Shown here in pieces: positions 2 through 64,000 of a DNA stretch of 64,000 bases; positions within the stretch are counted from its first letter, which is position 1; each line of letters begins with the position of its first letter. Both the position numbers and the translations under genes were made by a program. The stretch spans positions 81,977 through 145,976 of the forward strand of contig JAKLGJ010000002.1 of NCBI GenBank assembly GCA_022710715.1. The letters run 5' to 3'. The DNA comes from Candidatus Omnitrophota bacterium. Lineage in GTDB: Bacteria > Omnitrophota > Gorgyraeia > Gygaellales > Profunditerraquicolaceae. The notes beneath the pieces were generated by a model. That model saw nothing but the letters and a program-made list of their open reading frames with translations. It made no database searches and was not told the origin of the DNA.

Positions 2-1339
2 GAACGCATTGCCATTAACCTGGCCCCTTCTCAAGTCAAGAAACAGGGGGCGGCTTTTGACCTGGCCATCGCCCTGGGCATACTGGCGGCTTCCGGCCAG
101 ATCAATGCAGAATGGCTGAAGAACTACTGCGTGATGGGCGAGCTGGCTCTGGACGGAGCCTTGCGTCCCTGCAAAGGCGTGCTATCGGTAAGTATGGCCG
201 TGGCTAAATCGCATTGCCGTAATTTGATTGTCCCGGCCGAAAACGCCAAAGAAGCAAGCCTGGTTTCCGGAACACAGGTCTGGCCGGTCAAAACGTTGCA
301 ACAAGCCATTGCGTTCCTGCAGAATCCAGACGCATCTACGCCTTTCAAGATCGATCTGCGCGAACTATTCCTGCAACAAACGGTCTATCCGGTCGATTTC
401 AGCGAGATCAAAGGCCAGTACGCAGCCAAGCGGGCCATCGAAGTGGCGGTTTCCGGCGGCCATAATATAGCCATGGTCGGTCCGCCGGGCAGCGGAAAAA
501 CCATGCTCGCTCAACGCATCCCCTCCATTCTACCCGACCTGACCCTCGAAGAATCCCTGGAAGTGACCCGGATCCATTCTGCCCTGGGCTTGCTCCCGGC
601 CGGACAAGGCGTGGTTTCCGCGCATCCTTTTCGCGCGCCGCACCACGCCATTTCTCATGCCGGATTGACAGGCGGAGGACCGTTCCCCCAACCGGGAGAG
701 ATCAGCCTGGCGCATCAGGGCGTCCTGTTCCTGGATGAATTACCGGAGTTCCAGCGCGACTGCCTGGAAGCCCTGCGCCAGCCGCTGGAAGAGGGGCTGA
801 TCCACGTCTGCCGCGCCAGCAGTTCGTTCCTCTTTCCGGCTTCCTTCATGCTGGTAGCGGCAATGAACCCCTGCCCCTGCGGATTCCTGACCGATCCCCG
901 CAAAACATGCCGCTGCCGCCAGGCGCTCATTGAGCGCTACCGGGGGAAGATCTCCGGCCCCCTGAAGGACCGGATCGACATCCATATCGAAGTGCCTCCG
1001 GTGCACATCCGGGAATTGAACGATGCCGGCGACGGGGAACCTTCGGCTGCGATCAAGCAACGGGTGGAGAAAACGCGCGCCCGCCAGCGCCTGCGTTTCT
1101 CGACGGAAGGGATATTCTACAATGCCCAGATGAACGCCCGGATGATCAGGAAATTCTGCTCTTTAAGCCTGCCGGCCCGGGAATTGTTGAAACAGGCCAT
1201 GGAAGAATTGGGTTTGTCTGCGCGGGCATACACCAGAGTGTTAAAAGTGAGCCGCACTATCGCGGATATGGCCGGCGGGGAAACAGTGGAGGCGGAGCAT
1301 ATTGCGGAAGCGGTGCACTACCGCAGTCTGGATCGTTAG
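2..1339 (+). CDS. comM: Mg-chelatase-like AAA+ ATPase ComM/YifB (5'-partial, N-terminus lies outside the window)
   Basis: Reading frame is open from position 2. Translation gives the Lon-like N-domain (DLAIALGILAASGQI) followed by an AAA+ core with Walker A (GPPGSGKT), Walker B (VLFLDELPEF) and a C-terminal Mg-chelatase-type helical domain. Stop codon TAG at 1337-1339. Confidence 0.85.
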   Translation, partial: ERIAINLAPSQVKKQGAAFDLAIALGILAASGQINAEWLKNYCVMGELALDGALRPCKGVLSVSMAVAKSHCRNLIVPAENAKEASLVSGTQVWPVKTLQQAIAFLQNPDASTPFKIDLRELFLQQTVYPVDFSEIKGQYAAKRAIEVAVSGGHNIAMVGPPGSGKTMLAQRIPSILPDLTLEESLEVTRIHSALGLLPAGQGVVSAHPFRAPHHAISHAGLTGGGPFPQPGEISLAHQGVLFLDELPEFQRDCLEALRQPLEEGLIHVCRASSSFLFPASFMLVAAMNPCPCGFLTDPRKTCRCRQALIERYRGKISGPLKDRIDIHIEVPPVHIRELNDAGDGEPSAAIKQRVEKTRARQRLRFSTEGIFYNAQMNARMIRKFCSLSLPARELLKQAMEELGLSARAYTRVLKVSRTIADMAGGETVEAEHIAEAVHYRSLDR

Positions 1340-1962
1340 AACCGCATGATCTGGGTAATAACCTGATCATCGGCGCTATTAATTCCGTTGGGATAATAAA
1401 GATCTATCCCTTCCTGCTGAAGCTTGATCTGAAAACGGTCGGGAACGCTGGTGGCGTCAAGACTGCTGGGTGGACAACCGCAGGTTCCCCCTTTTTGCGT
1501 GGTGCCATAAAAAGGCCGGACACTGACATAGGTCCCTGCCGGCTGCAGCCAGGCGCCAAAAGGCCAGTACTCCCAGTCATAACTGCCCCCCCAGGGCGTG
1601 GCAGGGATTCGCTTCTCCAAATAAGGACCGTTCCAGGAGGCATTAATACTTGCCGCTTGCTGCGCCAGGGGATATGTCCAGGGGGCTCCCCAGGCGGTGG
1701 AAGGACAACAAGAATTGAGATAGGCCGCGCGATTCATGAAACCCGGGTCTTCATCAGGACAAACATCCGGCGGCCATAAGCTGGTATCGCTGTAATAAGC
1801 TAAAGCCGCGGTCTGAATGCTCTTCAAATCTGCCATTACTCGGGTAATTTTGGCTTTCTCGACCGCCCGGTAAGCGTTGGGAGCAATCACTGCGGAAAGA
1901 ATAGCGATAATGGCGATCACCACAATTAATTCCACCAGGGTAAACCCCAGCTGTTTCATCAT
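1336..1962 (-). CDS. prepilin-type N-terminal cleavage/methylation domain protein (type IV pilin / pseudopilin-like) with a Cys-rich C-terminal domain
   Basis: N-terminus MMKQLGFTLVELIVVIAIIAIL matches the class III signal peptide (G|FTLxE) and hydrophobic helix of type IV pilins. ATG at 1962 or 1959; the ORF track extends to a GTG at 1971. Convergent with comM and overlaps its stop by 4 nt. Confidence 0.8.
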   Translation of the reverse strand: MMKQLGFTLVELIVVIAIIAILSAVIAPNAYRAVEKAKITRVMADLKSIQTAALAYYSDTSLWPPDVCPDEDPGFMNRAAYLNSCCPSTAWGAPWTYPLAQQAASINASWNGPYLEKRIPATPWGGSYDWEYWPFGAWLQPAGTYVSVRPFYGTTQKGGTCGCPPSSLDATSVPDRFQIKLQQEGIDLYYPNGINSADDQVITQIMRF

Positions 1963-2057
1963 GGCCCCCACTTTGCCCCCATTAATCCACTACAAGTGTA
2001 GCACAATTTTACCATGAATACAAATCGCTAAATTGCAATCGGTTACGATCATTACGC

Positions 2058-2810
2058 TCAACAATTCTTCTTGGAAGTAAACAGGTTGCCGCGCACGATT
2101 CTGGCGCGATGCAGGAAATAAACCAGCAGGCACCCCAGAGTTTGCAGGCCATAGCGGACACTGGGGGTAAAACCGATGGAAGAAGCTTGCGGGAAATAAC
2201 GCACCGGCATGGGAATATCGCCGATGGTGAAACCGAAATGCACAGCCTGTACCAGCATCTGGGTATCGAAAACAAAACCGTCGTGATTTTTTTCAAAAGG
2301 AACGGTCTGAAGCACTGCGCGACGATAGGCCCGGAACCCGGAATGAAACTCGCCCAGATTCTGTCCCAGACAGATATTCTCCAGGCCGGTTAAGAAACGA
2401 TTGGCCAGGTATTTGTAAAGCGGCATGCCTGACGCCAGGCATTCCTTGCGCGATCTGACCCGGTTGCCCAGGACAACATCACATACGCCCAGACGCAGGA
2501 TATCCAGGGCGGCCGGAATCAGCCGGCTGTCATACTGGTAATCCGGATGCACCATCACGATAAACGCCGCGCCCTTTTCCAGCGCCAGCCGGTAACAGGT
2601 TTTTTGGTTGGCGCCGTATCCTTTATTGGCATGGTGCTCGTAAACCGTGAGGCGAAGCTGGCGGGCAATCGTTACGGTATCATCGGTACTGGCGTCATCG
2701 ACCAGGATAATCTCATCCACGCTCCCCGCAGGGATTGCCTGGATCGTCCGGGCCAGCGTCAACGCCGCATTATAGGCAGGCAGAACCGCTATAACTTTTT
2801 CTTTCATCAC
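2058..2810 (-). CDS. family 2 glycosyltransferase (DPM1/GtrB-like)
   Basis: [14 protein letters not shown]...[14 protein letters not shown] is the GT-A N-terminal nucleotide-binding signature (DxD-type); 250 aa. Confidence 0.8.
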
Positions 2811-2954
2811 CGTCTATCTTACCATGCCAACCGGGGTTTATCAATGAATTTAGCCGGCCGCGCGCAGCGATTTTGCTTGAGGAAATCAGCGGTAGCCGTA
2901 TAATAGAAAATACGACCCGTTCGGTCCAGCCACCTATCCCACAAAGGAGATGCT

Positions 2955-3506
2955 ATGCCGGCAAACATCAAAGCTATCGCTCAACGCATCAAAGAACTGC
3001 GCACGATCAACGGGCTCTCCCCCGAAGCCCTGGCTAAAGAATTCAAGATATCTCTGGAGACTTACAAGAAATACGAACAAGGGGATAAAGACATCCCGGT
3101 CGGCCTCCTCTATGAAGTCGCCCAGAAATTCAATGTCGAACTGACCACCCTGCTGACCGGAGACGAACCGCATCTGCACGCTTACAGTCTGGTGAAGAAA
3201 AACCTGGGACCGGCGGTAGACCGGCGCAAAGAATATAAATATAAAGATCTCGCGTATAACTTCGTCAACAAAAAGGCCGAGATTTTCATGGTCACGGTCA
3301 CGCCGGGGAAAAAATCGGATATTCACTATTATTCCCATCCCGGCCAGGAATTCAATTATATACTCGAAGGAAGCCTGCAGGTGCTGCTCGAGGGCCATGA
3401 AATCACCCTCGACCAGGGCGACGCATTTTATTTCAATTCCGGGCTCAAGCATGCCATGGTTGCATTACATGGAAAACCGGCGCGGTTTCTGGCGATCATT
3501 CTCTAG
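2955..3506 (+). CDS. XRE-family HTH transcriptional regulator with C-terminal cupin domain
   Basis: N-terminal HTH ([26 protein letters not shown]). C-terminal cupin beta-barrel signature ([18 protein letters not shown]...[12 protein letters not shown]). Confidence 0.8.
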
Positions 3507-33792: not shown

Positions 33793-33868
33793 CGGGGTCG
33801 ACGAGATTTGAACTCGCGATCTTCGCCGTGACAGGGCGACGTGTTGAACCAGGCTACACTACGACCCC
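33793..33868 (-). tRNA. tRNA-Asp (anticodon GTC)
   Basis: Minus strand folds as GGGGTCG/TA/D-arm/anticodon stem TCGCC-loop CTGTCAC-GGCGA/T-arm GTTCAAATC/CGACCCC+G. No encoded CCA. Confidence 0.85.
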
Positions 33869-33952
33869 ACGATAAGAGGTATAATTGTAAGTCAAAAATG
33901 GCTTTGTGGCAATATATTTTTTCCCCGCTCCGCCTGCGGGGAGAAAATTCAA

Positions 33953-34026
33953 TGGGCGCTAGAGGACTTGAACCCCTGACCCTCTGCGTGTAAAGCAGAT
34001 GCTCTAACCAGCTGAGCTAAGCGCCC
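33953..34026 (-). tRNA. tRNA-Val (anticodon TAC)
   Basis: Minus strand: GGGCGCT TA GCTCAGCTGGTTAGAGC A TCTGC TTTACAC GCAGA GGGTC AGGGGTTCAAGTCCTCT AGCGCCC A. Canonical cloverleaf with T-loop TTCAAGT. Confidence 0.85.
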
Positions 34027-51095: not shown

Positions 51096-51167
51096 TGCGC
51101 CTGACAGGAGTCGAACCTGTACCACCAGCTCCGGAGGCTAGTGCGCTATCCATTGCGCTACAGGCGC
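51096..51167 (-). tRNA. tRNA-Arg (anticodon CCG)
   Basis: Minus strand: GCGCCTG TA GCGC AATGGATA GCGC A CTAGC CTCCGGA GCTGG TGGT ACAGG TTCGACT CCTGT CAGGCGC A. Confidence 0.85.
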
Positions 51168-55760: not shown

Positions 55761-55912
55761 AAAAAAAAACCAACCGGTTAAGGTTGGTTACTGTGGTTCG
55801 CCTGAGATTGGTCCATTCTTTTTGTGCATGTATCCGCCTTGCCTGCCTCGCGGGGCAGGCTTAAAGGTTATCTCGATTTGTAATAGTGTAGCACAAAAAA
55901 GAGTTTTGTCAA
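55761..55912 (-). promoter_or_regulatory. pyr operon leader: sigma70-like promoter, putative PyrR-binding stem-loop and Rho-independent attenuator terminator
   Basis: On the minus strand: TTGACA (55912..55907), 16-nt spacer, TACACT (55890..55885). Stem-loop GCCTGCCCCGCGAGGCAGGCAAGG (about 55860..55837) resembles the PyrR binding loop (..GAGGC.GGCAAGG). Terminator AACCAACCTTAACCGGTTGGTT + T9 (55789..55761) ends 10 nt before the pyrR ATG. Confidence 0.5.
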
Positions 55913-58900
55913 GCCGGAATCTGCGTTTCCAGCCAGATCAGCGTTTCTTTCAGGGATGTATCTGTAGCAATCCCCTGGGTTTCCTCCATTTTCAACTCCT
56001 GGGCCAACAACGCTAAAATCTCCTGCCGGGCCTGCGCAATACGCCCCTGCTGATAACACTGCTGCACATAACAGATGATCTCCTGCGGCTTAAGCAACCT
56101 GCCCTGCGCCAGGATAACCTGCAAATCCTGCGCCTGTAGCGCTGCCGCCGGATTCAAGGCCACAGGAGCCGCGATCCAGGCAGGCGCCGGTGAGGAACCG
56201 GAAACCGGCAGGCTGCGCAGATCGATACCGCCGGTTTCATCCGGCTTATGCTCGCGCGCCGCCGGCTCGAGCGGCCGGGATTGCGCGGCCTGCTGCGCTT
56301 CGTACTCCCGCACCATGGCTTCAATCCCCCGTTCCTGCTCTTCGACATTCATCTGGATGGCTTTCATTCGTTCGCGGATAACCGCCAGGAGAGGAAGGAC
56401 CTGCTCCTGAAAAGCGGTTAACGATTCGGCGATCCGGCCGCTGTTTTTCACGTCCTGCGCGTCGCGATCCCAGAACGCCTTGAACAACAAGTGTTCCTGG
56501 CTGAAAGTAAGCTTTTGATTAAGGCATACTTCGCTTAAAAGCTTCAGGGCTTGCAGCCGTGTCAGCGGGCCTGCCGTTTCCAATAAAACAGCGAGTACCG
56601 ATAACGATTGGTCGATGATCATATTGTCCCAGCTTTTCAAGCCGGCGGCAAGATCAGACATCTGTTCAGCGGCGGCGGACAACTCGATTCCCGGCTTATC
56701 TTTCAAAGCGGTGATGATCAGGCTGCGCGCTTCCTGCGCCACCTCGCGCGAATTGATATACTCCAACCCCAGCGCTATAAGCATCTCCCTGGGCAGTTCT
56801 ATGCGCTGTTTCGTTTCCACCAGCTGCGCTTTCTCCCGTATTTCATGCAGGGCGATCGCTTTGTCTAAAGCCCGGCCCGGCCGTTCAAGATCATGCAATG
56901 CGGCTTTCAATTTCATCGCCTCGACCGTTCCCGAGACCTCCCGGCCGAAATTGTCGATGATCTCGATCAACCGCTGTGCTGTGCCGCCGTCGCCGGCGAT
57001 CACTTCCGCTTTGAATGACGGGATATCCTTCACCGCAGTCGCATCTCCTTCCTTGAGATCGAGCTCGCCGCCCAGGGAATCCAGGTAACGGGTCACCCGG
57101 CTGGGCGGGACTTTCAAATGGAACGATTCTCCTTTGGCCGCTCTGGCCAGGACCCTCACCCCCAGCGCGGCGGAAACTTCCCGGGTCATCGCGTTCGCTG
57201 CGGCATCCTGCACTTCTTTTAATTCATCGGTGTTAGTATAGACTTTTTCTTTCACATACACGAATTCCCCGCTTTCCGTAAACACTCCGTGCAGCAGAAC
57301 GAACCCGATCACGTTCTCTTCCCCGTCCCGCAGCAGGATGATCAATTCCTGGGCGTCGGAGATAAAACTCATCAGGCTGTGTTTGTAGTTGCCGGAATAA
57401 TCGCTTCTCTGGCAATTCCCCGAGCCGCTGGCGCCGTACCGGCCGATCTTCAGGGTGTCTTTAAGATCGAAGCTGATCTCCGCGGATACTTTTGCCGGGA
57501 CTGCCGCGGTCAGCGATTCGTCGGTCAAAGCTTTTTGCGCGGCAGCCAGCAATGATTTAAGCATTCCGCGGGACTCGTTAATGAAATTGCGCGGTTTTTC
57601 CCGCGCGGCGAATTCCTGATCCAGGACAGCCAGATCGTCGATCATCCGCGATACGGTCAATTCTTTTTGCACGGCAGGATCTCTTTCGTAGGATTCGTAG
57701 AGCCGGATGATCTCCTGCCACTGCTCCCCGCGATCCATAGAAGCCAGGTTCTCGATCCGGCCGGCGATCTCCAGGACTTTTTGCACCAATATCCCATGAT
57801 CCTGCGCCTGCTGCCTGATCCGCTGCAGTTCCCGCAAGCGCCGCAGGGCTTCCCCCCGCGCCCGGTTCTCCCGTTTAGACAGCTTTTTCAGTCCCATTAA
57901 AACCTGGATATCCTTCTGATCGAGCGCCGCTTTCAACGCAGGACTTAATCCTGCCGGATCGGTTTTCTGCCCGGCCAGGAATTCGTCCGTTTCCTGCTCC
58001 AGCACCGCGATCCTGGCCTGATACGCTTTATCCGCTTCCGAAATCACCATTTCGCGCTCCGCGGAATGCTGCTGGTAATTTTGCATTGTGGTCTCGAAAT
58101 ATTGCCGGTACGCAGCGCGGTTGCTGAAATCTTCCTCGGCTTCGGCAGTCAATGATTCCAGATTCTCATAGGCGTCGCGCACCGCCTGCGGCGCCTGCGA
58201 CGCGGCATTGGCCTGGCTGCGCTTATAGTCCCGCACTCCCTGCCTGCCTCCGGTAAAATAAGCGATCACCAGGTCCCGCAGGATGGCGTAAGCCGCGGAT
58301 CTGCGGGGATAGTTCTGCTGGAAATTAAACATATCCATCATGAACTCGGTGTCCGCCAGAGCGGCCCGGGCGTCGGGATGAACCGGCCCCATCTCGAAAT
58401 CGAAGAACTTTTTATCCCCGATCCTGCTCTCCAGCCGGGAGATGAGCGCCGCGGAAAAATCGCCGGATTGCGCCGCGGCGTTGATTTCCTCGGCGGACAA
58501 TACTTTTTTCTGCTGCATCGCCGCAGCCGTAGCCAGGAAATTCAATCCGTCGACCAGGGCCTGGCCCTGCCCGGAAGATCTGCGGATGATCGTTTCCGCG
58601 GTTTCCCGGTATCGACTGTTGTCTTTCAACCAGTTCAGGGCCCGGAACAGGGCTACCCGGCGCTGATCATTGCCCCCCCTGATGGTTTCGACGATTTTAT
58701 CGGTGACCGCGGCATCGCTGAATCCCGCTCTCGAAAGGATATAGGCTTCGAAAACAGTCAGCCCCTGCACCGGCTCCTGGGACAAAAAGCCCTCGATCGG
58801 CTCCTTGAAGGTCGGGCTCATTGCGCCCAGAAGCCGCAATGACAAAGATTTTTCCCGGGCATTGATCTTCCCGGTCAGCCAGGCCAGCTCCACCAGGTCC

Positions 58901-61900
58901 TCCTTGCGCATTGACCAGCTCCAGGTGATTATTTCCAGCAAACGGCTTAAAGCTTCTCCTGCGGAAGCGCCGGGACGCAGCGAAGAGATCACCGCATTTG
59001 CCGCGGGCATATGTTCCGGGCTTACTGCCAGCCATTTCAAACTCTTATCGTAAAACTGCTTGCGCTCGACATCGTTGAGCGGCCGCAAAACCTCTCTCAA
59101 TACGGATTGGGCCTGCCCGGAAAATCCCAGGCTTAAAACGAATTCCAGGGCAAATCCCAGCTCGCGATTGGCAAAATCGAATTCCAGGATTTGATGCGCA
59201 AATTTGTTTGCCGGCGGGGAATAACGGAACACGTCGGTGTTGTCCGGGAGAGTCTTACTGGAAGCAATATCCGCGAGAATCGCCGCGACCTGCTCCTGCT
59301 CGTTTTCTTCGATCCGGCCTAATAAGAAAAGCAGCTCGCTCAAATAATTTTTCTTGAACCGGACAAGACAATCTCCCAGCGTGTCAAAAGCATTGGCCAG
59401 ATCCGCTTCCGGACGCAATTGAGTGATCAATGCGTTGAATATTTCGGCTTGTTCCGGATGCTGCCCGATTGCCAGGAATGCGACCCAGCATAAACCAGCC
59501 TGGTGATACGGCGATGATTTAGAACGCAAAGCTTGCCGGGCTTTGGCCCGGACCGCATCGGACAAAGGCAGATGAGCAAGCGTGAATTCCAGCCAGAATT
59601 GAAATTCCCGCTCTTGCGGCTGGAAAGTAAGAATTTCGCGCACCAGACGCTGGCGGTCGGCAACGGATTCCCTGCGGATGACCCGGATAATTTGCCCGAA
59701 CACCAGACTATCCCCGTATTCATATCGTTGCGCATCCTCGTCGGGCATTTCTCCCAACAGAATGAGCATGCGGAACCAGGATTCATGATGATCCGCGTCC
59801 ATTTCCAGCAAATCCTCATAATCAACAGACAGGCCGTCAACAATGTTGCCCAGGTCCCGCGTTGATTGCCGGCCCAATATATTGACGATCTCCAGGGCCG
59901 GCGGATTACGCTGAAGCCAGATCAGGCTCTGGATCAATTCTTTTCTTTGCTGGCGGTTCCTGGCCTGGATCGACCGGACCAGATTGTCCCGGGCTTGCGC
60001 TTCAAGATCGATCGAGGACAACAAATAGGCTTCGACCAGGCTCACGCCTTGCGCGGTGACGCGCGCGGCCAGAACTGCGCCGCTTAACGGCGCGGGGAAC
60101 CAACGATCGTCTTTATACCCTTTGAATACAGCCAGCTGGCTCAACGTAAGCTTGATCTGCGTTTCCGGCATCCCGCGTCCGCGCAATGCCGCGGTCCAGG
60201 CTTCCCGGTCATAAAAAACCAGCCCCTGGATAAAATCCGGCTTATCCGCGGACAAACGCACCAGCGAATCTATCCCGCACTCCGCGATAAAAGGCTTAAG
60301 CCAGTCCATCCACCGCGCCAGCTCCTGCATTGAAGAGCTTCCTTTTAATTGCACAGCTTCGATAAAACCTGTTTGCATAAACAGCCGCTGGTATTCTTCG
60401 GCGGTTTTCATGATTGTATCGGAATAGCGATCGAAGTCGTTAAACTGCAGGGACCCGCCGTTTTCCAGAAGAACCAGCTGCCGGCTTTTCACCAGGATCC
60501 TGCCCGCAAATAGGATCGCGGTTGGCAGATTGTTCGCGGGAAGCGGCATACGGACCATTTCGTCGCCTGCCGCCATCCGCTCTTCCTGCGGCACATCCAG
60601 CAATGCCTGGATCAACGCATAGAGGAAACGCACATCGTAATCCTCTTTGCGGTTGTCCAGGAATTCGTACAACGCCGGCTCTATGCCCATGGCTTGAAGC
60701 TGCCGTAAAAATTCTTCGTTCGATTTCAACAGATCCGTGCCGGTCAGCCTGGGCAAAGCGGCTGTCGTCTGCCCCGCGGCGGGCATGGTCGTGGGTAACG
60801 AAAATCCTCCGGTCGTCCCGAAAGGCGCGGCGCCGCCGTCCGGACCGTCGCCGCTCATTACATCCGCAGTGGCAGTGGATACGCGGCGGGACTCTTCGCC
60901 TTTGATCGTACGCAGCAATGCTTCCAGAATGCCGCGCAATCTTCCTTTATTTACCGCCGCCTCGGACAAGGACAACTCGAATATTCCCGGCGCGGGAATA
61001 AATTTCGCCGGAGCTATTTCCATATCCGGAAGAATATGTTTTCCTGCGGATAGCTCTTCGGGCAGGGTGAAATCGGTTCTGGCGAGCAGCGCGGTTAACC
61101 CCGACAGATCGGAAGCGTGCGGATTTTTAAGCTGGATCAGTCGCGTATCAAGCAGCGCTCCCGTGTCGGGGAATGCCGCCCCGAAAAACGCCGTATCGAA
61201 AAATATCTTATCCGCCGATCCGATCCCGCTAAAAACAGGCAACGCTTCCTGCGACCACAGCGTCCAGCCCGGAGCGGTTTCTTGCGGCGCAGCCAGCACG
61301 CTAAAATCAATACCCTGGACGTTATTATCGGTAACCCCGAAGCTGCCGCCTTCGGCAAATCCGGAAGTGCCGCCGGCGGAGAATCCGCTTGACCCCTTTG
61401 CGCCCTGATTGCCTGCCGGGAGCTCCGGAGCATCGGGCAATTCGTCGAGCATTTCATCCGCGATCGCCGCCAGAATTTTTTTATAGAGCAGCCGGTTGAC
61501 AAAATATTCCGTCAGCAGTCGGGGATCCTGCTTCATCCGGCGGTTGCCCACGCTGATTTCCTGATTTCTATCCGCCCATTCCCGGCCGGCCCGTATTTTT
61601 TGCTCACCCAGCTGAATCCGGGCGAATTGAAATGTGCTCACGGGAACATCGGCATCCCGGTGCTGATGTTCCAGGTAAAATATAGGATATTCCTCAAAAC
61701 CCCCTTTAGTCGGGTCGAACAAAGGCGAGGTCGATCCCTGCTTGATCGAATCCAGTTGAGTATGCTTATCGAAAAGCTCGCGGTCAGGCGTTTCCCGGAA
61801 AAGATAGATATCCGCACCGGCAACCGTACCGTCGACCGAATCCGGAGAGAGACGCATCCCGCCGTATTTCGCGACCAGGATGATCGTACCCAGCAGCGAA

Positions 61901-64000
61901 CGCAGGAACCCGGCAGGGCCGGCGAATATTCCCTCTTCTCGATACTCTTTCATGTCCGGATCGATCACAAAATACCAGGCATCTTCATAGAGCTCGGTTC
62001 CTTCGCGCTGACCGTGAATGGCGAATCGGGGCAAAGCCCGCAAATCTTTTTGCGCCAGCTGCGCTTCCAGCTCGGCAATTTCTTTTTCCAGGGCAGGCAG
62101 ATCCGGAATCGGTTCGTCTCCGCCGTCCGGGTCTTCGTCTTCGACAGCCAGAGTTGTCTGGTCGGGCGCGGGCAATGTTTGCCTGGCCCTGGCAATGGAT
62201 CTATCGAGGCCGGCAAAGAAATTCCTCCGGTAACCCGGATTGGACAGGTAGTTTTTCGGGGTCCCGAGGGATTTCGCATACTCGTTATTCTTGATCCCGT
62301 TAAGCGCCAGAAAGTCGTCCATCTGCTTGCCGCGTTCTTCGGTCAGACCCTGGAGTTTTACTTTACCCCGGTCATCCGCGATCACCGCTTTATAGATGAC
62401 CCGCGGCCTGCTTTCGCCGGTAAGCTCTTTTGCCGGCGTGCCCAGAATAACGACATACGCGGTCAAGACATGGGGAACATCCAGCGCAACGATCTCCCCG
62501 ACTTCTTGCGGATCAAGCTGCCGGTCAGGATTACGGGTGGCCAGTTCCAGTTTTACCATATTCTGGATCAATCCGGGATCCCGCGCCAATTCCTCGTCGG
62601 TCAAGCGGGTATATACGTAGACCAGCCCTGCGGGCAATCCGCCTTTTGCTTCTTTCTCGCCTTTCGGCACGGCAGGCGTCTGGAACGAGCGAGTCATGGC
62701 CAGGGAATCGGTGTCCCCCGTTTTTCCCTGCTCATAGATCACGCGCATCAAATCCCCGCGCATCTCGGACTTGATCTGGCCGATAATCCTGCCGCCATCC
62801 TGCCCTTCGCCCACCGAAGCAGGGTTCGCGGCAGCCGCCAAAGGAACAAGGGCGCCCGCATAAGGAAGGTTATCGGCTGATAAACCCCGGGGCGCCCTTG
62901 CAATTTTCTGTCTTTCGTACTCCTGCCGGACTTGTTCCAGAAGCGCCGGATCGCCTTGCTTCAATCGTTCTATCAATTTGTTCCTCGCCTGTCGAACGCT
63001 GCCGTAGCTGGCGCGAGAAACCCGCATTTTCAAAAACAGCATCGCCGGTCTTATCGCGGGGAAGGTCATGTTTTTAAGATGCTCGCCGATCCAGTCGACG
63101 TCGCTGACAGTTCTGCCGCCATTCAACATGTCCCGGGCCAGCAACCGAACGATCAAATTGCCCAATAAAATGGCTTCTTCCGGCCCGGGAGGCGCTTTTT
63201 CCAAAGCGATGCGCGTATTTTCGGATACCGGCGGCACGGATACCGGCGTTTCTTCCGCGCCTGCCGCCGCGGAGGGCGCGGCGATCAGCTCTTCCTGTAT
63301 AATCTCCGCGACTGCCTGCTGCGCCTGCCTGGCTTCTTCCCGAAGGCGCAACGACTGCAGCGCTTGCTGCATGGCCTCTCGGGTCTTCGGCTGCGCCTGG
63401 GCATTCACGAATTCCTCCAGATACTTTTTTTCCGCCGCAGGCATTAAATCGTATGATTCTTCCACGCGCGCGCGGATCTCCCGGGAGCGCTGGAGCAAAG
63501 CCAGAACAAATTGAGTTTTTTCCCGGCCGGAGAGCGCCGAAAATTTCCCGAGCGATCCCGCGGCGGAACGCGAGCCGGTCAACAGATCATACGCGGAATC
63601 GAACAGTTCCCGGTCAAAAAAGCGCTTACCTCCGTCGATCTCCGCGCCGTTTTCTTTTCCGCCGGGGCTTTTTAATTCATCCTCAAGCTGCTTGATCCGC
63701 TTTTCCAGCGCCGCGATCCTGCGATTATTCTCTTCGAGCAATCCTCTCTGCATGGAAAAAGCCGCGCCCGCTTCGCTGCGCGCCATCATCCGGTCCAGCA
63801 AACGGTTATGATTCTCCAGCCGCAGCTTTTCCTGACGCAGGCGGAAAATTTCTTCCTGCGCTGCCGTTTCCTTCCCGCCGTCGCCGGAAGCCGCATCCAT
63901 AAAATCGCGGTAATTTTTAAAGCTGTCTTTCCCGGCCGGATCGGAAACCAGCGAGAGAAATGACCGGGCCAGAGCGTCAAAATCGCCATGATGCGATTCC
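55909..64000 (-). CDS. giant coiled-coil / helical-repeat protein of more than 2,690 aa; 5' end (N-terminus) extends beyond the window
   Basis: Single uninterrupted minus-strand ORF from stop at 55909 to the window edge; the frame stays open upstream of the Met at 63900. No recognisable catalytic motif (no P-loop, no HExxH). Features: long heptad coiled coils, Gly/Ser-rich linker (GNQGAKGSSGFSAGGTSGFAEGGSFG), Ala/Pro/Gly-rich segments, and at least four degenerate ~90-aa helical repeats sharing R..AL.....WL spacing. Confidence 0.7.
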   Translation of the reverse strand, partial: ESHHGDFDALARSFLSLVSDPAGKDSFKNYRDFMDAASGDGGKETAAQEEIFRLRQEKLRLENHNRLLDRMMARSEAGAAFSMQRGLLEENNRRIAALEKRIKQLEDELKSPGGKENGAEIDGGKRFFDRELFDSAYDLLTGSRSAAGSLGKFSALSGREKTQFVLALLQRSREIRARVEESYDLMPAAEKKYLEEFVNAQAQPKTREAMQQALQSLRLREEARQAQQAVAEIIQEELIAAPSAAAGAEETPVSVPPVSENTRIALEKAPPGPEEAILLGNLIVRLLARDMLNGGRTVSDVDWIGEHLKNMTFPAIRPAMLFLKMRVSRASYGSVRQARNKLIERLKQGDPALLEQVRQEYERQKIARAPRGLSADNLPYAGALVPLAAAANPASVGEGQDGGRIIGQIKSEMRGDLMRVIYEQGKTGDTDSLAMTRSFQTPAVPKGEKEAKGGLPAGLVYVYTRLTDEELARDPGLIQNMVKLELATRNPDRQLDPQEVGEIVALDVPHVLTAYVVILGTPAKELTGESRPRVIYKAVIADDRGKVKLQGLTEERGKQMDDFLALNGIKNNEYAKSLGTPKNYLSNPGYRRNFFAGLDRSIARARQTLPAPDQTTLAVEDEDPDGGDEPIPDLPALEKEIAELEAQLAQKDLRALPRFAIHGQREGTELYEDAWYFVIDPDMKEYREEGIFAGPAGFLRSLLGTIILVAKYGGMRLSPDSVDGTVAGADIYLFRETPDRELFDKHTQLDSIKQGSTSPLFDPTKGGFEEYPIFYLEHQHRDADVPVSTFQFARIQLGEQKIRAGREWADRNQEISVGNRRMKQDPRLLTEYFVNRLLYKKILAAIADEMLDELPDAPELPAGNQGAKGSSGFSAGGTSGFAEGGSFGVTDNNVQGIDFSVLAAPQETAPGWTLWSQEALPVFSGIGSADKIFFDTAFFGAAFPDTGALLDTRLIQLKNPHASDLSGLTALLARTDFTLPEELSAGKHILPDMEIAPAKFIPAPGIFELSLSEAAVNKGRLRGILEALLRTIKGEESRRVSTATADVMSGDGPDGGAAPFGTTGGFSLPTTMPAAGQTTAALPRLTGTDLLKSNEEFLRQLQAMGIEPALYEFLDNRKEDYDVRFLYALIQALLDVPQEERMAAGDEMVRMPLPANNLPTAILFAGRILVKSRQLVLLENGGSLQFNDFDRYSDTIMKTAEEYQRLFMQTGFIEAVQLKGSSSMQELARWMDWLKPFIAECGIDSLVRLSADKPDFIQGLVFYDREAWTAALRGRGMPETQIKLTLSQLAVFKGYKDDRWFPAPLSGAVLAARVTAQGVSLVEAYLLSSIDLEAQARDNLVRSIQARNRQQRKELIQSLIWLQRNPPALEIVNILGRQSTRDLGNIVDGLSVDYEDLLEMDADHHESWFRMLILLGEMPDEDAQRYEYGDSLVFGQIIRVIRRESVADRQRLVREILTFQPQEREFQFWLEFTLAHLPLSDAVRAKARQALRSKSSPYHQAGLCWVAFLAIGQHPEQAEIFNALITQLRPEADLANAFDTLGDCLVRFKKNYLSELLFLLGRIEENEQEQVAAILADIASSKTLPDNTDVFRYSPPANKFAHQILEFDFANRELGFALEFVLSLGFSGQAQSVLREVLRPLNDVERKQFYDKSLKWLAVSPEHMPAANAVISSLRPGASAGEALSRLLEIITWSWSMRKEDLVELAWLTGKINAREKSLSLRLLGAMSPTFKEPIEGFLSQEPVQGLTVFEAYILSRAGFSDAAVTDKIVETIRGGNDQRRVALFRALNWLKDNSRYRETAETIIRRSSGQGQALVDGLNFLATAAAMQQKKVLSAEEINAAAQSGDFSAALISRLESRIGDKKFFDFEMGPVHPDARAALADTEFMMDMFNFQQNYPRRSAAYAILRDLVIAYFTGGRQGVRDYKRSQANAASQAPQAVRDAYENLESLTAEAEEDFSNRAAYRQYFETTMQNYQQHSAEREMVISEADKAYQARIAVLEQETDEFLAGQKTDPAGLSPALKAALDQKDIQVLMGLKKLSKRENRARGEALRRLRELQRIRQQAQDHGILVQKVLEIAGRIENLASMDRGEQWQEIIRLYESYERDPAVQKELTVSRMIDDLAVLDQEFAAREKPRNFINESRGMLKSLLAAAQKALTDESLTAAVPAKVSAEISFDLKDTLKIGRYGASGSGNCQRSDYSGNYKHSLMSFISDAQELIILLRDGEENVIGFVLLHGVFTESGEFVYVKEKVYTNTDELKEVQDAAANAMTREVSAALGVRVLARAAKGESFHLKVPPSRVTRYLDSLGGELDLKEGDATAVKDIPSFKAEVIAGDGGTAQRLIEIIDNFGREVSGTVEAMKLKAALHDLERPGRALDKAIALHEIREKAQLVETKQRIELPREMLIALGLEYINSREVAQEARSLIITALKDKPGIELSAAAEQMSDLAAGLKSWDNMIIDQSLSVLAVLLETAGPLTRLQALKLLSEVCLNQKLTFSQEHLLFKAFWDRDAQDVKNSGRIAESLTAFQEQVLPLLAVIRERMKAIQMNVEEQERGIEAMVREYEAQQAAQSRPLEPAAREHKPDETGGIDLRSLPVSGSSPAPAWIAAPVALNPAAALQAQDLQVILAQGRLLKPQEIICYVQQCYQQGRIAQARQEILALLAQELKMEETQGIATDTSLKETLIWLETQIPA

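Follow-up and report, generated by a model that had tools for sequence, protein, structure and literature searches.

The 64,000-nucleotide stretch of DNA analysed here (hereafter the window) comes from a Candidatus Omnitrophota bacterium (assembly GCA_022710715.1, contig JAKLGJ010000002.1, positions 81,977–145,976), a member of a phylum of abundant, uncultivated and probably host-dependent nanobacteria noted for extremely long proteins, and its far end is occupied by one very long open reading frame (ORF) on the minus strand. Translation of this frame yields 2,696 sense codons, stop-free from position 63999 down to the TGA at 55911–55909 and still open at the window edge. Used as a database query, in a search whose word prefilter was overrun by unrelated large proteins, the 2,696-aa translation returned a single protein at 100% identity, NCBI HRZ13982.1 (title 'MAG TPA: hypothetical protein P5110_00560, Candidatus Omnitrophota bacterium'; MAG, metagenome-assembled genome), here called P0001, which at full length has 3,428 aa (only nine of them Cys), the window ORF encoding the last 79%. 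The 732 residues beyond the window edge comprise a signal peptide, a conserved N-terminal domain (N-domain) and ~400 aa more. The surrounding gene order is dnaA-dnaN-x-gyrB-gyrA-glmS-rsmI-[P0001 gene]-pyrR-pyrB-pyrC.

Two assemblies from independent samples (ENA k141_570614, 914 kb; JGI Ga0116154_10000041, 235 kb) contain the complete gene and have no mismatches to the window over 8,092 nt; the protein is recorded on nine contigs, and the GC content at third codon positions of the ORF is 0.67, as compared with 0.63–0.74 in neighbouring genes. Because the frame is identical in independent assemblies and its codon-position GC matches that of its neighbours, the ORF is real and intact. The uninterrupted 8.1-kb frame running past the window edge, as reported by the initial annotation from the letters alone, is therefore upheld, with no splitting stop or frameshift in either independent assembly, and the N-terminus missing from the window has been recovered together with its signal peptide and N-domain. 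The description of a giant protein of no known family is borne out as regards great size and the lack of a curated family, but at 3,428 aa P0001 falls well under the class of Omnitrophota 'giants' of at least 10,000 aa. Sequence searches of the window part and of the full protein against Pfam, NCBIfam, PADLOC and the PDB gave no significant match (all Pfam rows for P0001 were sub-threshold, with E of at least 0.005 and scores under the curated cut-offs), hence no confident known-family profile over most of the length, and a first scan of window-part peptides against genome contigs found no relative.

At its N-terminus, P0001 starts with MLRKICSLILIVSFICEQSGFA (residues 1–22) followed by Gln23, the putative cleavage falling between the two. 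The family to which P0001 belongs (see below) has the same layout: an n-region with 2–5 Lys/Arg, an h-region of 12–13 uncharged residues and an end of the form (E/Q)Q.GFA followed, past the predicted cut, by Q, a [GSTA]F[AS]Q end being found in 65 of 72 members. In its shape this N-terminus matches a Sec signal peptide of the cleavable type and not a membrane anchor, no further transmembrane-like segment follows it in P0001, and a classical signal peptide favours a location outside the cytoplasm. Behind it lies the N-domain (residues 24–335, ~310 aa), which matched 343 database proteins, at 48–66% identity among the 120 matches listed; the lengths of these proteins are biased, as the word-indexed search lists only short proteins for short queries and misses P0001 itself when queried with its own N-domain. 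The conserved strings FWVNLRPD, TRPWIVP, YKATLKV, LRQVYYS..WFK and a terminal R.YFSGG recur in this domain, and its invariant columns are kept in P0001. An AlphaFold2 model built on a 121-sequence alignment (mean predicted local distance difference test, pLDDT, 88.7; predicted TM-score, pTM, 0.86) contains three beta-hairpins, seven helices of 14–28 residues and one five-residue helix. Pfam has no match in residues 1–732. Since the best Foldseek match of the model to PDB folds reached only E 0.59 and a TM-score of ~0.13, we treat the predicted fold as one unrepresented in the PDB; weak likenesses to latherin/SPLUNC1, BPI-like proteins, NheA and a diphtheria-toxin homologue were far under significance and are not used as evidence.

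The other end of the protein is equally characteristic. In 40 of 41 complete family members, a motif GG[IV]D[FLM]R.LP is located ~105–135 aa from the end and is followed by a variable linker and a conserved helical domain, which together we call the C-module (a GGID motif within the last 160 aa occurs in the same proportion, 40/41); G-G-x-D is invariant in the 39 aligned members, and the last ~110 residues of P0001 align to 26 members by phmmer. For the C-terminal 170 residues, an AlphaFold2 model from 40 sequences (pLDDT 85.6) predicts a 47-residue helix, a low-confidence linker carrying the GGIDL motif and a compact bundle with pLDDT ~95. Two or three conserved cysteines are seen in the C-terminal bundle across the family, and in many members (e.g., L050, L036, P0129–P0166; L and P numbers denote loci and proteins of this study) a mini-motif SSP[VIL] or ASSAL stands 5–20 residues upstream of GGIDFR, being degenerate in P0001 (SRPLE).

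These elements define a protein family, named here N310 / GGIDFR-C-module, which was delineated in this analysis and is absent from Pfam-A 2025 and NCBIfam 20. P0001 has all three of its hallmarks, namely the signal peptide and the N-domain (both outside the window) and the C-module (inside it). The N-domain matches 405 loci among GTDB species-representative genomes, where it heads uninterrupted ORFs of 640 to >3,700 aa. The best 80 of these 405 loci were inspected; these alone include 3–5 copies per MAG, and the labels of the 79 GTDB loci read either Omnitrophota/Omnitrophica or, for ENA bins, 'uncultured Planctomycetales bacterium' or simply 'bacterium'. Judged on this best 80, the family is confined to Omnitrophota. 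Among 40 complete members, pairwise identities of the N-domain and of the C-module are correlated (r = 0.72, a value reached in 0 of 2,000 permutations).

What lies between the two ends is exchanged. Members with N-domains 83–89% identical have only 4–26% of their middles in common, and the ~2,950-aa payload of P0001 is mostly lineage-specific: outside both ends it has nothing in common with the 80 family loci except region X, residues 1366–1578 (Table 1). Paralogue middles within single uninterrupted ORFs (L036, L050, L018, L043, L049) carry guanylate kinase, HD, PEP-utilizer, GNAT, and HEAT with methyltransferase domains; a scan of 20 members added PGK, enolase, PGM, HAD, HATPase_c, FHA and metallophosphoesterase, and a C-module fragment is joined to triosephosphate isomerase. 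In one ENA assembly with many frame-split genes (ERZ1286166), the locus L086:1-10564 reads enolase-PPDK-...-C-module, then N-domain-iPGM-C-module, directly upstream of an ATP synthase operon; from the same accession, L085:7624-10504 has a family member between phosphotransacetylase and acetate kinase.

Short 'stand-alone' N-domain or C-module proteins were considered as a feature of the family and rejected as contig-end fragments or frame-split genes, and the assemblies with split members include ones where many other genes are also split. In a few assemblies, ...YFSGG is soon followed by the end of the N-domain ORF, with a large ORF running on in a different frame (L003:9916-16363, L004/L029:10001-15326, L005:10001-12486, L028:10001-17781), the shift being +1 in L003 and L004 and the downstream ORFs containing a Peptidase_M48 domain (L003) and PPDK-type domains (L004). 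Programmed +1 frameshifting was considered for L003 and L004; the other GTDB loci have no frame change of this kind at the N-domain boundary, and the changes observed are probably frameshift errors or pseudogenes.

The middle of P0001 is modular in its own right. Four degenerate repeats are real in statistical terms: the most alike pairs, u1 with u4 and u2 with u3, give Smith–Waterman scores of 102 and 104 as compared with a shuffle maximum of ~52 (z = 14.7 and 15.4), although self-BLASTP of P0001 detects no internal repeats and Tandem Repeats Finder (TRF) no DNA-level tandem repeat at a 135–160-aa period. The initial annotation was thus right about the presence of helical repeats but not about their size, the units being of 135–160 aa rather than ~90 aa and its own four anchor sequences standing 134–160 aa apart. 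No HEAT/ARM profile matches P0001, and the period differs from the ~40–47 aa of HEAT/ARM; the region may be a solenoid of larger units. Exhaustive HMMER comparison of residues 1674–2872 (a query outside which lie region X and the C-terminal part of module M, described below) with 1.84 billion representative proteins recovered seven relatives, all within residues ~2435–2872, and none for repeat units 1–3 or for the stretch from 1674 to ~2430. The linkers described earlier were found again by composition, one rich in Gly/Ser at residues 1592–1623 and several in Ala/Pro, and a motif scan agrees that P-loop and HExxH are both absent. The 'long heptad coiled coils', by contrast, are not borne out: a crude heptad scan marked a total of ~235 residues in pieces of 28–41 aa, with shuffled sequences giving a mean of 95, a standard deviation of 55 and a maximum of 214 (an excess of 2.5 standard deviations over the shuffles).

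Overlapping the last repeat is a second conserved element, module M. The C-terminal part of this rare 570-aa module carries a GRYGxSGxGNCQ loop (Cys2928, nt 57412–57414), Asp2947, His2969 and a Y-T-N motif, and 15 of its positions (G2918, R2919, G2921, S2923, G2924, G2926, C2928, L2941, M2942, D2947, G2964, H2969, Y2986, A2999 and S3032) do not vary among 33 sequences from bacteria and archaea, a pattern suggestive of a site for catalysis or ligand binding. The statement that P0001 has no recognisable catalytic domain is correct as far as known families are concerned, but it passes over this conserved module with its invariant Gly-rich loop and Cys, Asp and His. A module M profile gave nothing credible against Pfam and PDB, and likenesses of GNCQ.S to motifs of papain-like enzymes, caspases (QACxG), low-molecular-weight protein tyrosine phosphatases (CxGNxCRS) and ADP-ribosyltransferases (R-S-E) were rejected on the order of residues or on the misfit of conserved ones. 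Besides P0001, the module occurs in P0122 (a 4,294-aa paralogue of the family), in P0123 (a protein of 3,654 aa rich in transmembrane segments and without the N-domain), in smaller proteins and in 32 metagenome loci (L087–L118), many of them on low-GC contigs (0.35–0.40), where it forms the C-terminal part of 780–1,080-aa proteins without a signal peptide. One such gene (L102:7080-9503) has as neighbours aEF-1alpha, endonuclease dU and ribosomal protein L11 and looks archaeal, and one P0127 relative bears the name Candidatus Micrarchaeales archaeon; the neighbours of archaeal module M genes are housekeeping genes that give no functional hint. Going by these sequences, module M is common to Omnitrophota and hot-spring archaea. 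Module M begins with repeat unit 4, and the four repeats are therefore a lineage-specific amplification of the first ~140 residues of the module.

The modules are punctuated by DGG motifs, of which P0001 has six as compared with 0.9 expected. Outside the N-domain, DGG is the most over-represented tripeptide among 11 members of one subfamily (71 observed vs. 7.9 expected, z = 22), with KDG and RDG coming next; it often appears as [KR]DGG and is a linker signature of that subfamily (L006, L007, L008, L009, L018, L019, L039, L064, P0122). In L064, L007 and P0122 it precedes Pfam domains by 10–25 residues, and in P0001 and P0122 it also comes just after module M. Together with the SGG that terminates the N-domain and the GG of GGIDFR, these motifs suggest flexible hinges or double-glycine processing sites.

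Table 1. Features of the P0001 gene and of the region 3' of it (nucleotide positions in the window; residues of full-length P0001)
Feature	Nucleotides	Strand	P0001 residues	Remarks
In-window part of gene	55909..63999	(-)	733-3428 + TGA	100% match to P0001
DGG motifs, first three	63874-63882, 63628-63636, 62791-62799	(-)	772, 854, 1133	linker marks
Two short coiled-coil-like helices	63667..63867	(-)	777-806, 811-843	DGG at 772 and 854 on either side
DGG motifs, last three	62119-62127, 60832-60840, 56983-56991	(-)	1357, 1786, 3069	3069 just after module M
Region X	61462..62100	(-)	1366-1578	26% identity to large ORF downstream of L003 N-domain ORF; tblastn E 1e-11, 2e-10
Gly/Ser-rich low-complexity linker	61321..61428	(-)	~1590-1625	holds sole nucleotide tandem repeat of the ORF, 24 nt x 2 (TRF)
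Four degenerate repeats, 135-160 aa	58366..60090	(-)	2036-2610 (window aa 1304-1878)	u1 59671-60090, u2 59191-59670, u3 58786-59190, u4 58366-58785
Module M	57061..58770	(-)	2476-3045	570 aa: helical N-terminal part, then ~145-aa C-terminal part
Long single helix (predicted)	56281..56421	(-)	3259-3305	47 residues, precedes C-module; AlphaFold2 pLDDT 86-96
Family signature GGIDLRSLP	56206..56232	(-)	3322-3330	flexible Ala/Pro-rich linker, pLDDT 58-71
Four-helix bundle (predicted)	55924..56133	(-)	3355-3424	~70 aa, cysteines C3375 and C3380
Candidate regulatory region 3' of gene, outside protein	55761..55912	(-)		promoter, PyrR-binding leader and hairpin, all before pyrR ATG 55751

Downstream, the end of the gene abuts the control region of the pyr genes. 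A sigma-70-like TTGACA at 55912–55907 overlaps the P0001 stop codon, in agreement with the earlier observation that this codon runs into the -35 element of the pyrR promoter; a TG-extended TACACT lies 16 nt downstream (promoter 55912–55885), followed by a PyrR-binding leader at 55871–55761 (a full-length match to Rfam RF00515 at 42.4 bits, E 9e-5, which is sub-threshold against the gathering score of 54) and a terminator-like hairpin at 55789–55768, just ahead of the pyrR start codon. Promoter, leader and hairpin together resemble the classical PyrR attenuator, here within the genome of an Omnitrophota bacterium. Three tRNA genes identified with Rfam elsewhere in the window (33793–34026 and 51096–51167, minus strand) are unrelated to P0001.

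Overall, we favour the reading of P0001 as an exported passenger protein, in which a constant export/anchoring chassis carries a swappable payload, and assign to it a probability of roughly one half. The chassis would consist, at one end, of the Sec-type signal peptide with the ~310-aa N-domain and, at the other end, of the GGID[FL]R.LP linker with the ~70-aa four-helix bundle. In the proposed sequence of events, (i) the signal peptide would carry P0001 across the inner membrane, (ii) both constant ends would be recognised by partners or machinery that every paralogue uses, serving export, sorting or anchoring, and (iii) the middle would provide the copy-specific function, in P0001 that of a long scaffold built of modules, one of which probably catalyses a reaction or binds a ligand. 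The analysis establishes the gene, its family with the architecture and pattern of conservation, both end-domain models, the repeats, module M and the DGG statistics; export, the role of both ends and the scaffold or enzymatic activity are what we infer. A surface, scaffold or host-interaction role may apply to P0001.

Several observations weigh against this reading. The payload of the family largely needs cytoplasmic cofactors (kinases, S-adenosylmethionine (SAM) methyltransferases, GNATs, glycolytic enzymes), and the archaeal module M proteins without a signal peptide are awkward for a periplasmic or surface location; cytoplasm-like cargo and archaeal relatives of module M together constitute its main difficulty and feed the two alternatives considered next, delivery into another cell and an intracellular scaffold. 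In addition, no conserved secretion or partner gene was seen next to the family, the neighbours being housekeeping genes, with rsmI upstream and pyrR downstream of P0001 and unrelated genes in L003–L005; the fold search with the C-terminal bundle returned generic and designed helical bundles only; and most of the middle of P0001 is predicted to be helical, as judged from composition and from the one model of the last 170 residues.

The best surviving of the alternatives, which we regard as possible but rather doubtful, is that the P0001 family comprises AB-toxin- or MARTX-like delivered effectors or polyproteins of host-dependent or predatory bacteria, with the constant ends mediating secretion and translocation into another cell, the middle being cargo that would act in the cytoplasm of a target cell and [KR]DGG serving as processing sites at which modules are released. 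In favour of this scenario, types of cargo requiring ATP, SAM, acetyl-CoA or glycolytic intermediates are found behind a signal peptide, a swapped middle between constant ends is typical of polymorphic effector families, and both the strong over-representation of DGG and its placement ahead of Pfam domains and after module M would fit a processing signal; one preprint reports that peptidase domains of the C39 double-glycine type are frequent among the giant proteins of Omnitrophota (bioRxiv 10.1101/2023.11.21.568195), and an episymbiotic or predatory lifestyle has been proposed for the phylum (PMC10066038). However, the analysis identified no domain for proteolysis, pore formation or translocation (the toxin- and BPI-like fold matches of the N-domain being insignificant, as noted above), the DGG enrichment is limited to one subfamily, no secretion-system or immunity gene adjoins P0001, and the protein has no recognisable toxic or enzymatic cargo besides module M. 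A broader form of the proposal, which we hold to be similarly tentative, would make the chassis a phylum-specific system of export or delivery, taking cytoplasm-type cargo (glycolytic enzymes, kinases, acetyl- and methyltransferases and long scaffolds like P0001) out of ultra-small, host-dependent Omnitrophota and possibly into a host or prey, with [KR]DGG as the processing signal and the N-domain as a new translocation or anchoring fold.

An intracellular location, with the N-terminal hydrophobic segment acting as a tether without export and the family organising metabolic enzymes and long scaffolds within the cell, appears unlikely. [quoted passage not shown] The N-terminus itself argues otherwise: with 12–13 residues, its h-region falls short of the length of a membrane anchor, an N-in, C-out orientation is predicted by the positive charges on the N-terminal side, the invariant Gln follows a conserved small-x-small site (G-F-A), and P0001 has no other transmembrane segment.

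That P0001 acts inside the cell as a coiled-coil or cytoskeletal protein, be it SMC-like or otherwise filament-forming, is very improbable. A few short heptad-like helices, the 47-residue single helix ahead of the C-module and a composition rich in Leu, Ala, Glu and Arg would suit such a protein, but there is no Walker A motif ([AG]xxxxGK[ST]) and no match to an SMC, hinge or filament family, the longest heptad-like piece and the small excess over shuffles (see above) speak against extended coiled coils, and P0001 bears a signal peptide; a role of this kind is thereby largely refuted. Finally, that the ORF arose in assembly or belongs to a gene in decay that no longer functions, as might be suspected from a middle without orthologues anywhere and from the frame changes that split some family members in other assemblies, is essentially excluded by 10.3 kb of stop-free sequence at 56% GC (impossible by chance), by identical assemblies from different samples with the protein on nine contigs, by native codon-position GC, by end modules and a module M that are intact with every invariant residue present, and by the occurrence of split members in assemblies where many other genes are split as well.

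Long proteins of Omnitrophota have been described before, as 'Archaeovorins', Dockerin-type proteins and the 'multi-enzyme metabolic cluster' (West-Roberts et al., 2023, bioRxiv 10.1101/2023.11.21.568195; Nielsen and Lui, 2026, bioRxiv 10.64898/2026.06.07.730766). P0001 and the published giants are alike in phylum, in the N-terminal signal peptide and in long, mostly unannotated sequence that is mostly singleton, and the paralogues of P0001 share with them the HEAT, GNAT, HAD, HD, HATPase_c, PGM, methyltransferase and PPDK_N domains. They differ in that the published sets are defined by a length of at least 10,000 aa and by Pfam content, whereas P0001 has 3,428 aa and no Pfam domain, and in that the dockerin, TSP3, C39 and SecA-like domains and multiple transmembrane segments of the giants are all missing from P0001. 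Neither a constant ~310-aa N-domain nor a GGIDFR.LP motif with a four-helix C-module was found in the parts of the two preprints that were read, and nothing relevant came from searching full texts of the literature for the motif strings.

Beyond the phylum, the closest parallels are also partial. The TpsA proteins of two-partner secretion (FHA, CdiA) carry, behind their signal peptide, an N-terminal domain of ~250–300 aa that is conserved throughout the family and then a very long variable passenger, with swappable cargo in CdiA; however, their TPS domain is a Pfam-detectable beta-helix, whereas the N-domain of P0001 is modelled as a mixture of helices and hairpins and matches neither Pfam nor PDB, no TpsB-like gene adjoins P0001, and TpsA proteins have no constant C-terminal helical module. 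MARTX and polymorphic effectors likewise place constant N- and C-terminal regions around exchangeable modules, near-identical ends enclosing unrelated middles, but P0001 shows no Pfam or NCBIfam match to glycine-rich A/B/C repeats, a C80 cysteine protease or a type I secretion signal, its export would begin with Sec, and its processing at DGG is only hypothetical. The C-terminal domains (CTDs) of the type IX secretion system (T9SS), dockerins and LPXTG/PEP-CTERM signals resemble the C-module as short conserved modules carried by otherwise unrelated exported proteins after a flexible, motif-bearing linker; the P0001 module, in contrast, is predicted to be a soluble four-helix bundle (model pLDDT ~95) and not a beta-sandwich (Por_Secre_tail), a Ca-binding dockerin or a motif with a transmembrane helix and a basic tail, and no T9SS-CTD- or dockerin-type Pfam family matches P0001. 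Long modular Omnitrophota proteins with signal peptides were already known; for the two-ended chassis, for the fold of the N-domain and for module M, the searched libraries and papers appear to contain no description.

The family context (constant ends and a swappable middle), invisible from the window alone, is what gives the finding its meaning: at least one large class of Omnitrophota long proteins, with hundreds of loci and several per genome, rests on a single constant chassis with a freely exchanged middle. Module M, which Omnitrophota share with hot-spring archaea, adds another uncharacterised module, in which Cys, Asp and His residues are invariant. The conserved end modules provide tractable experimental handles (structures, binding partners, localisation) and pose a sharp, testable question, namely why a textbook export signal is placed on enzymes that need cytoplasmic cofactors.

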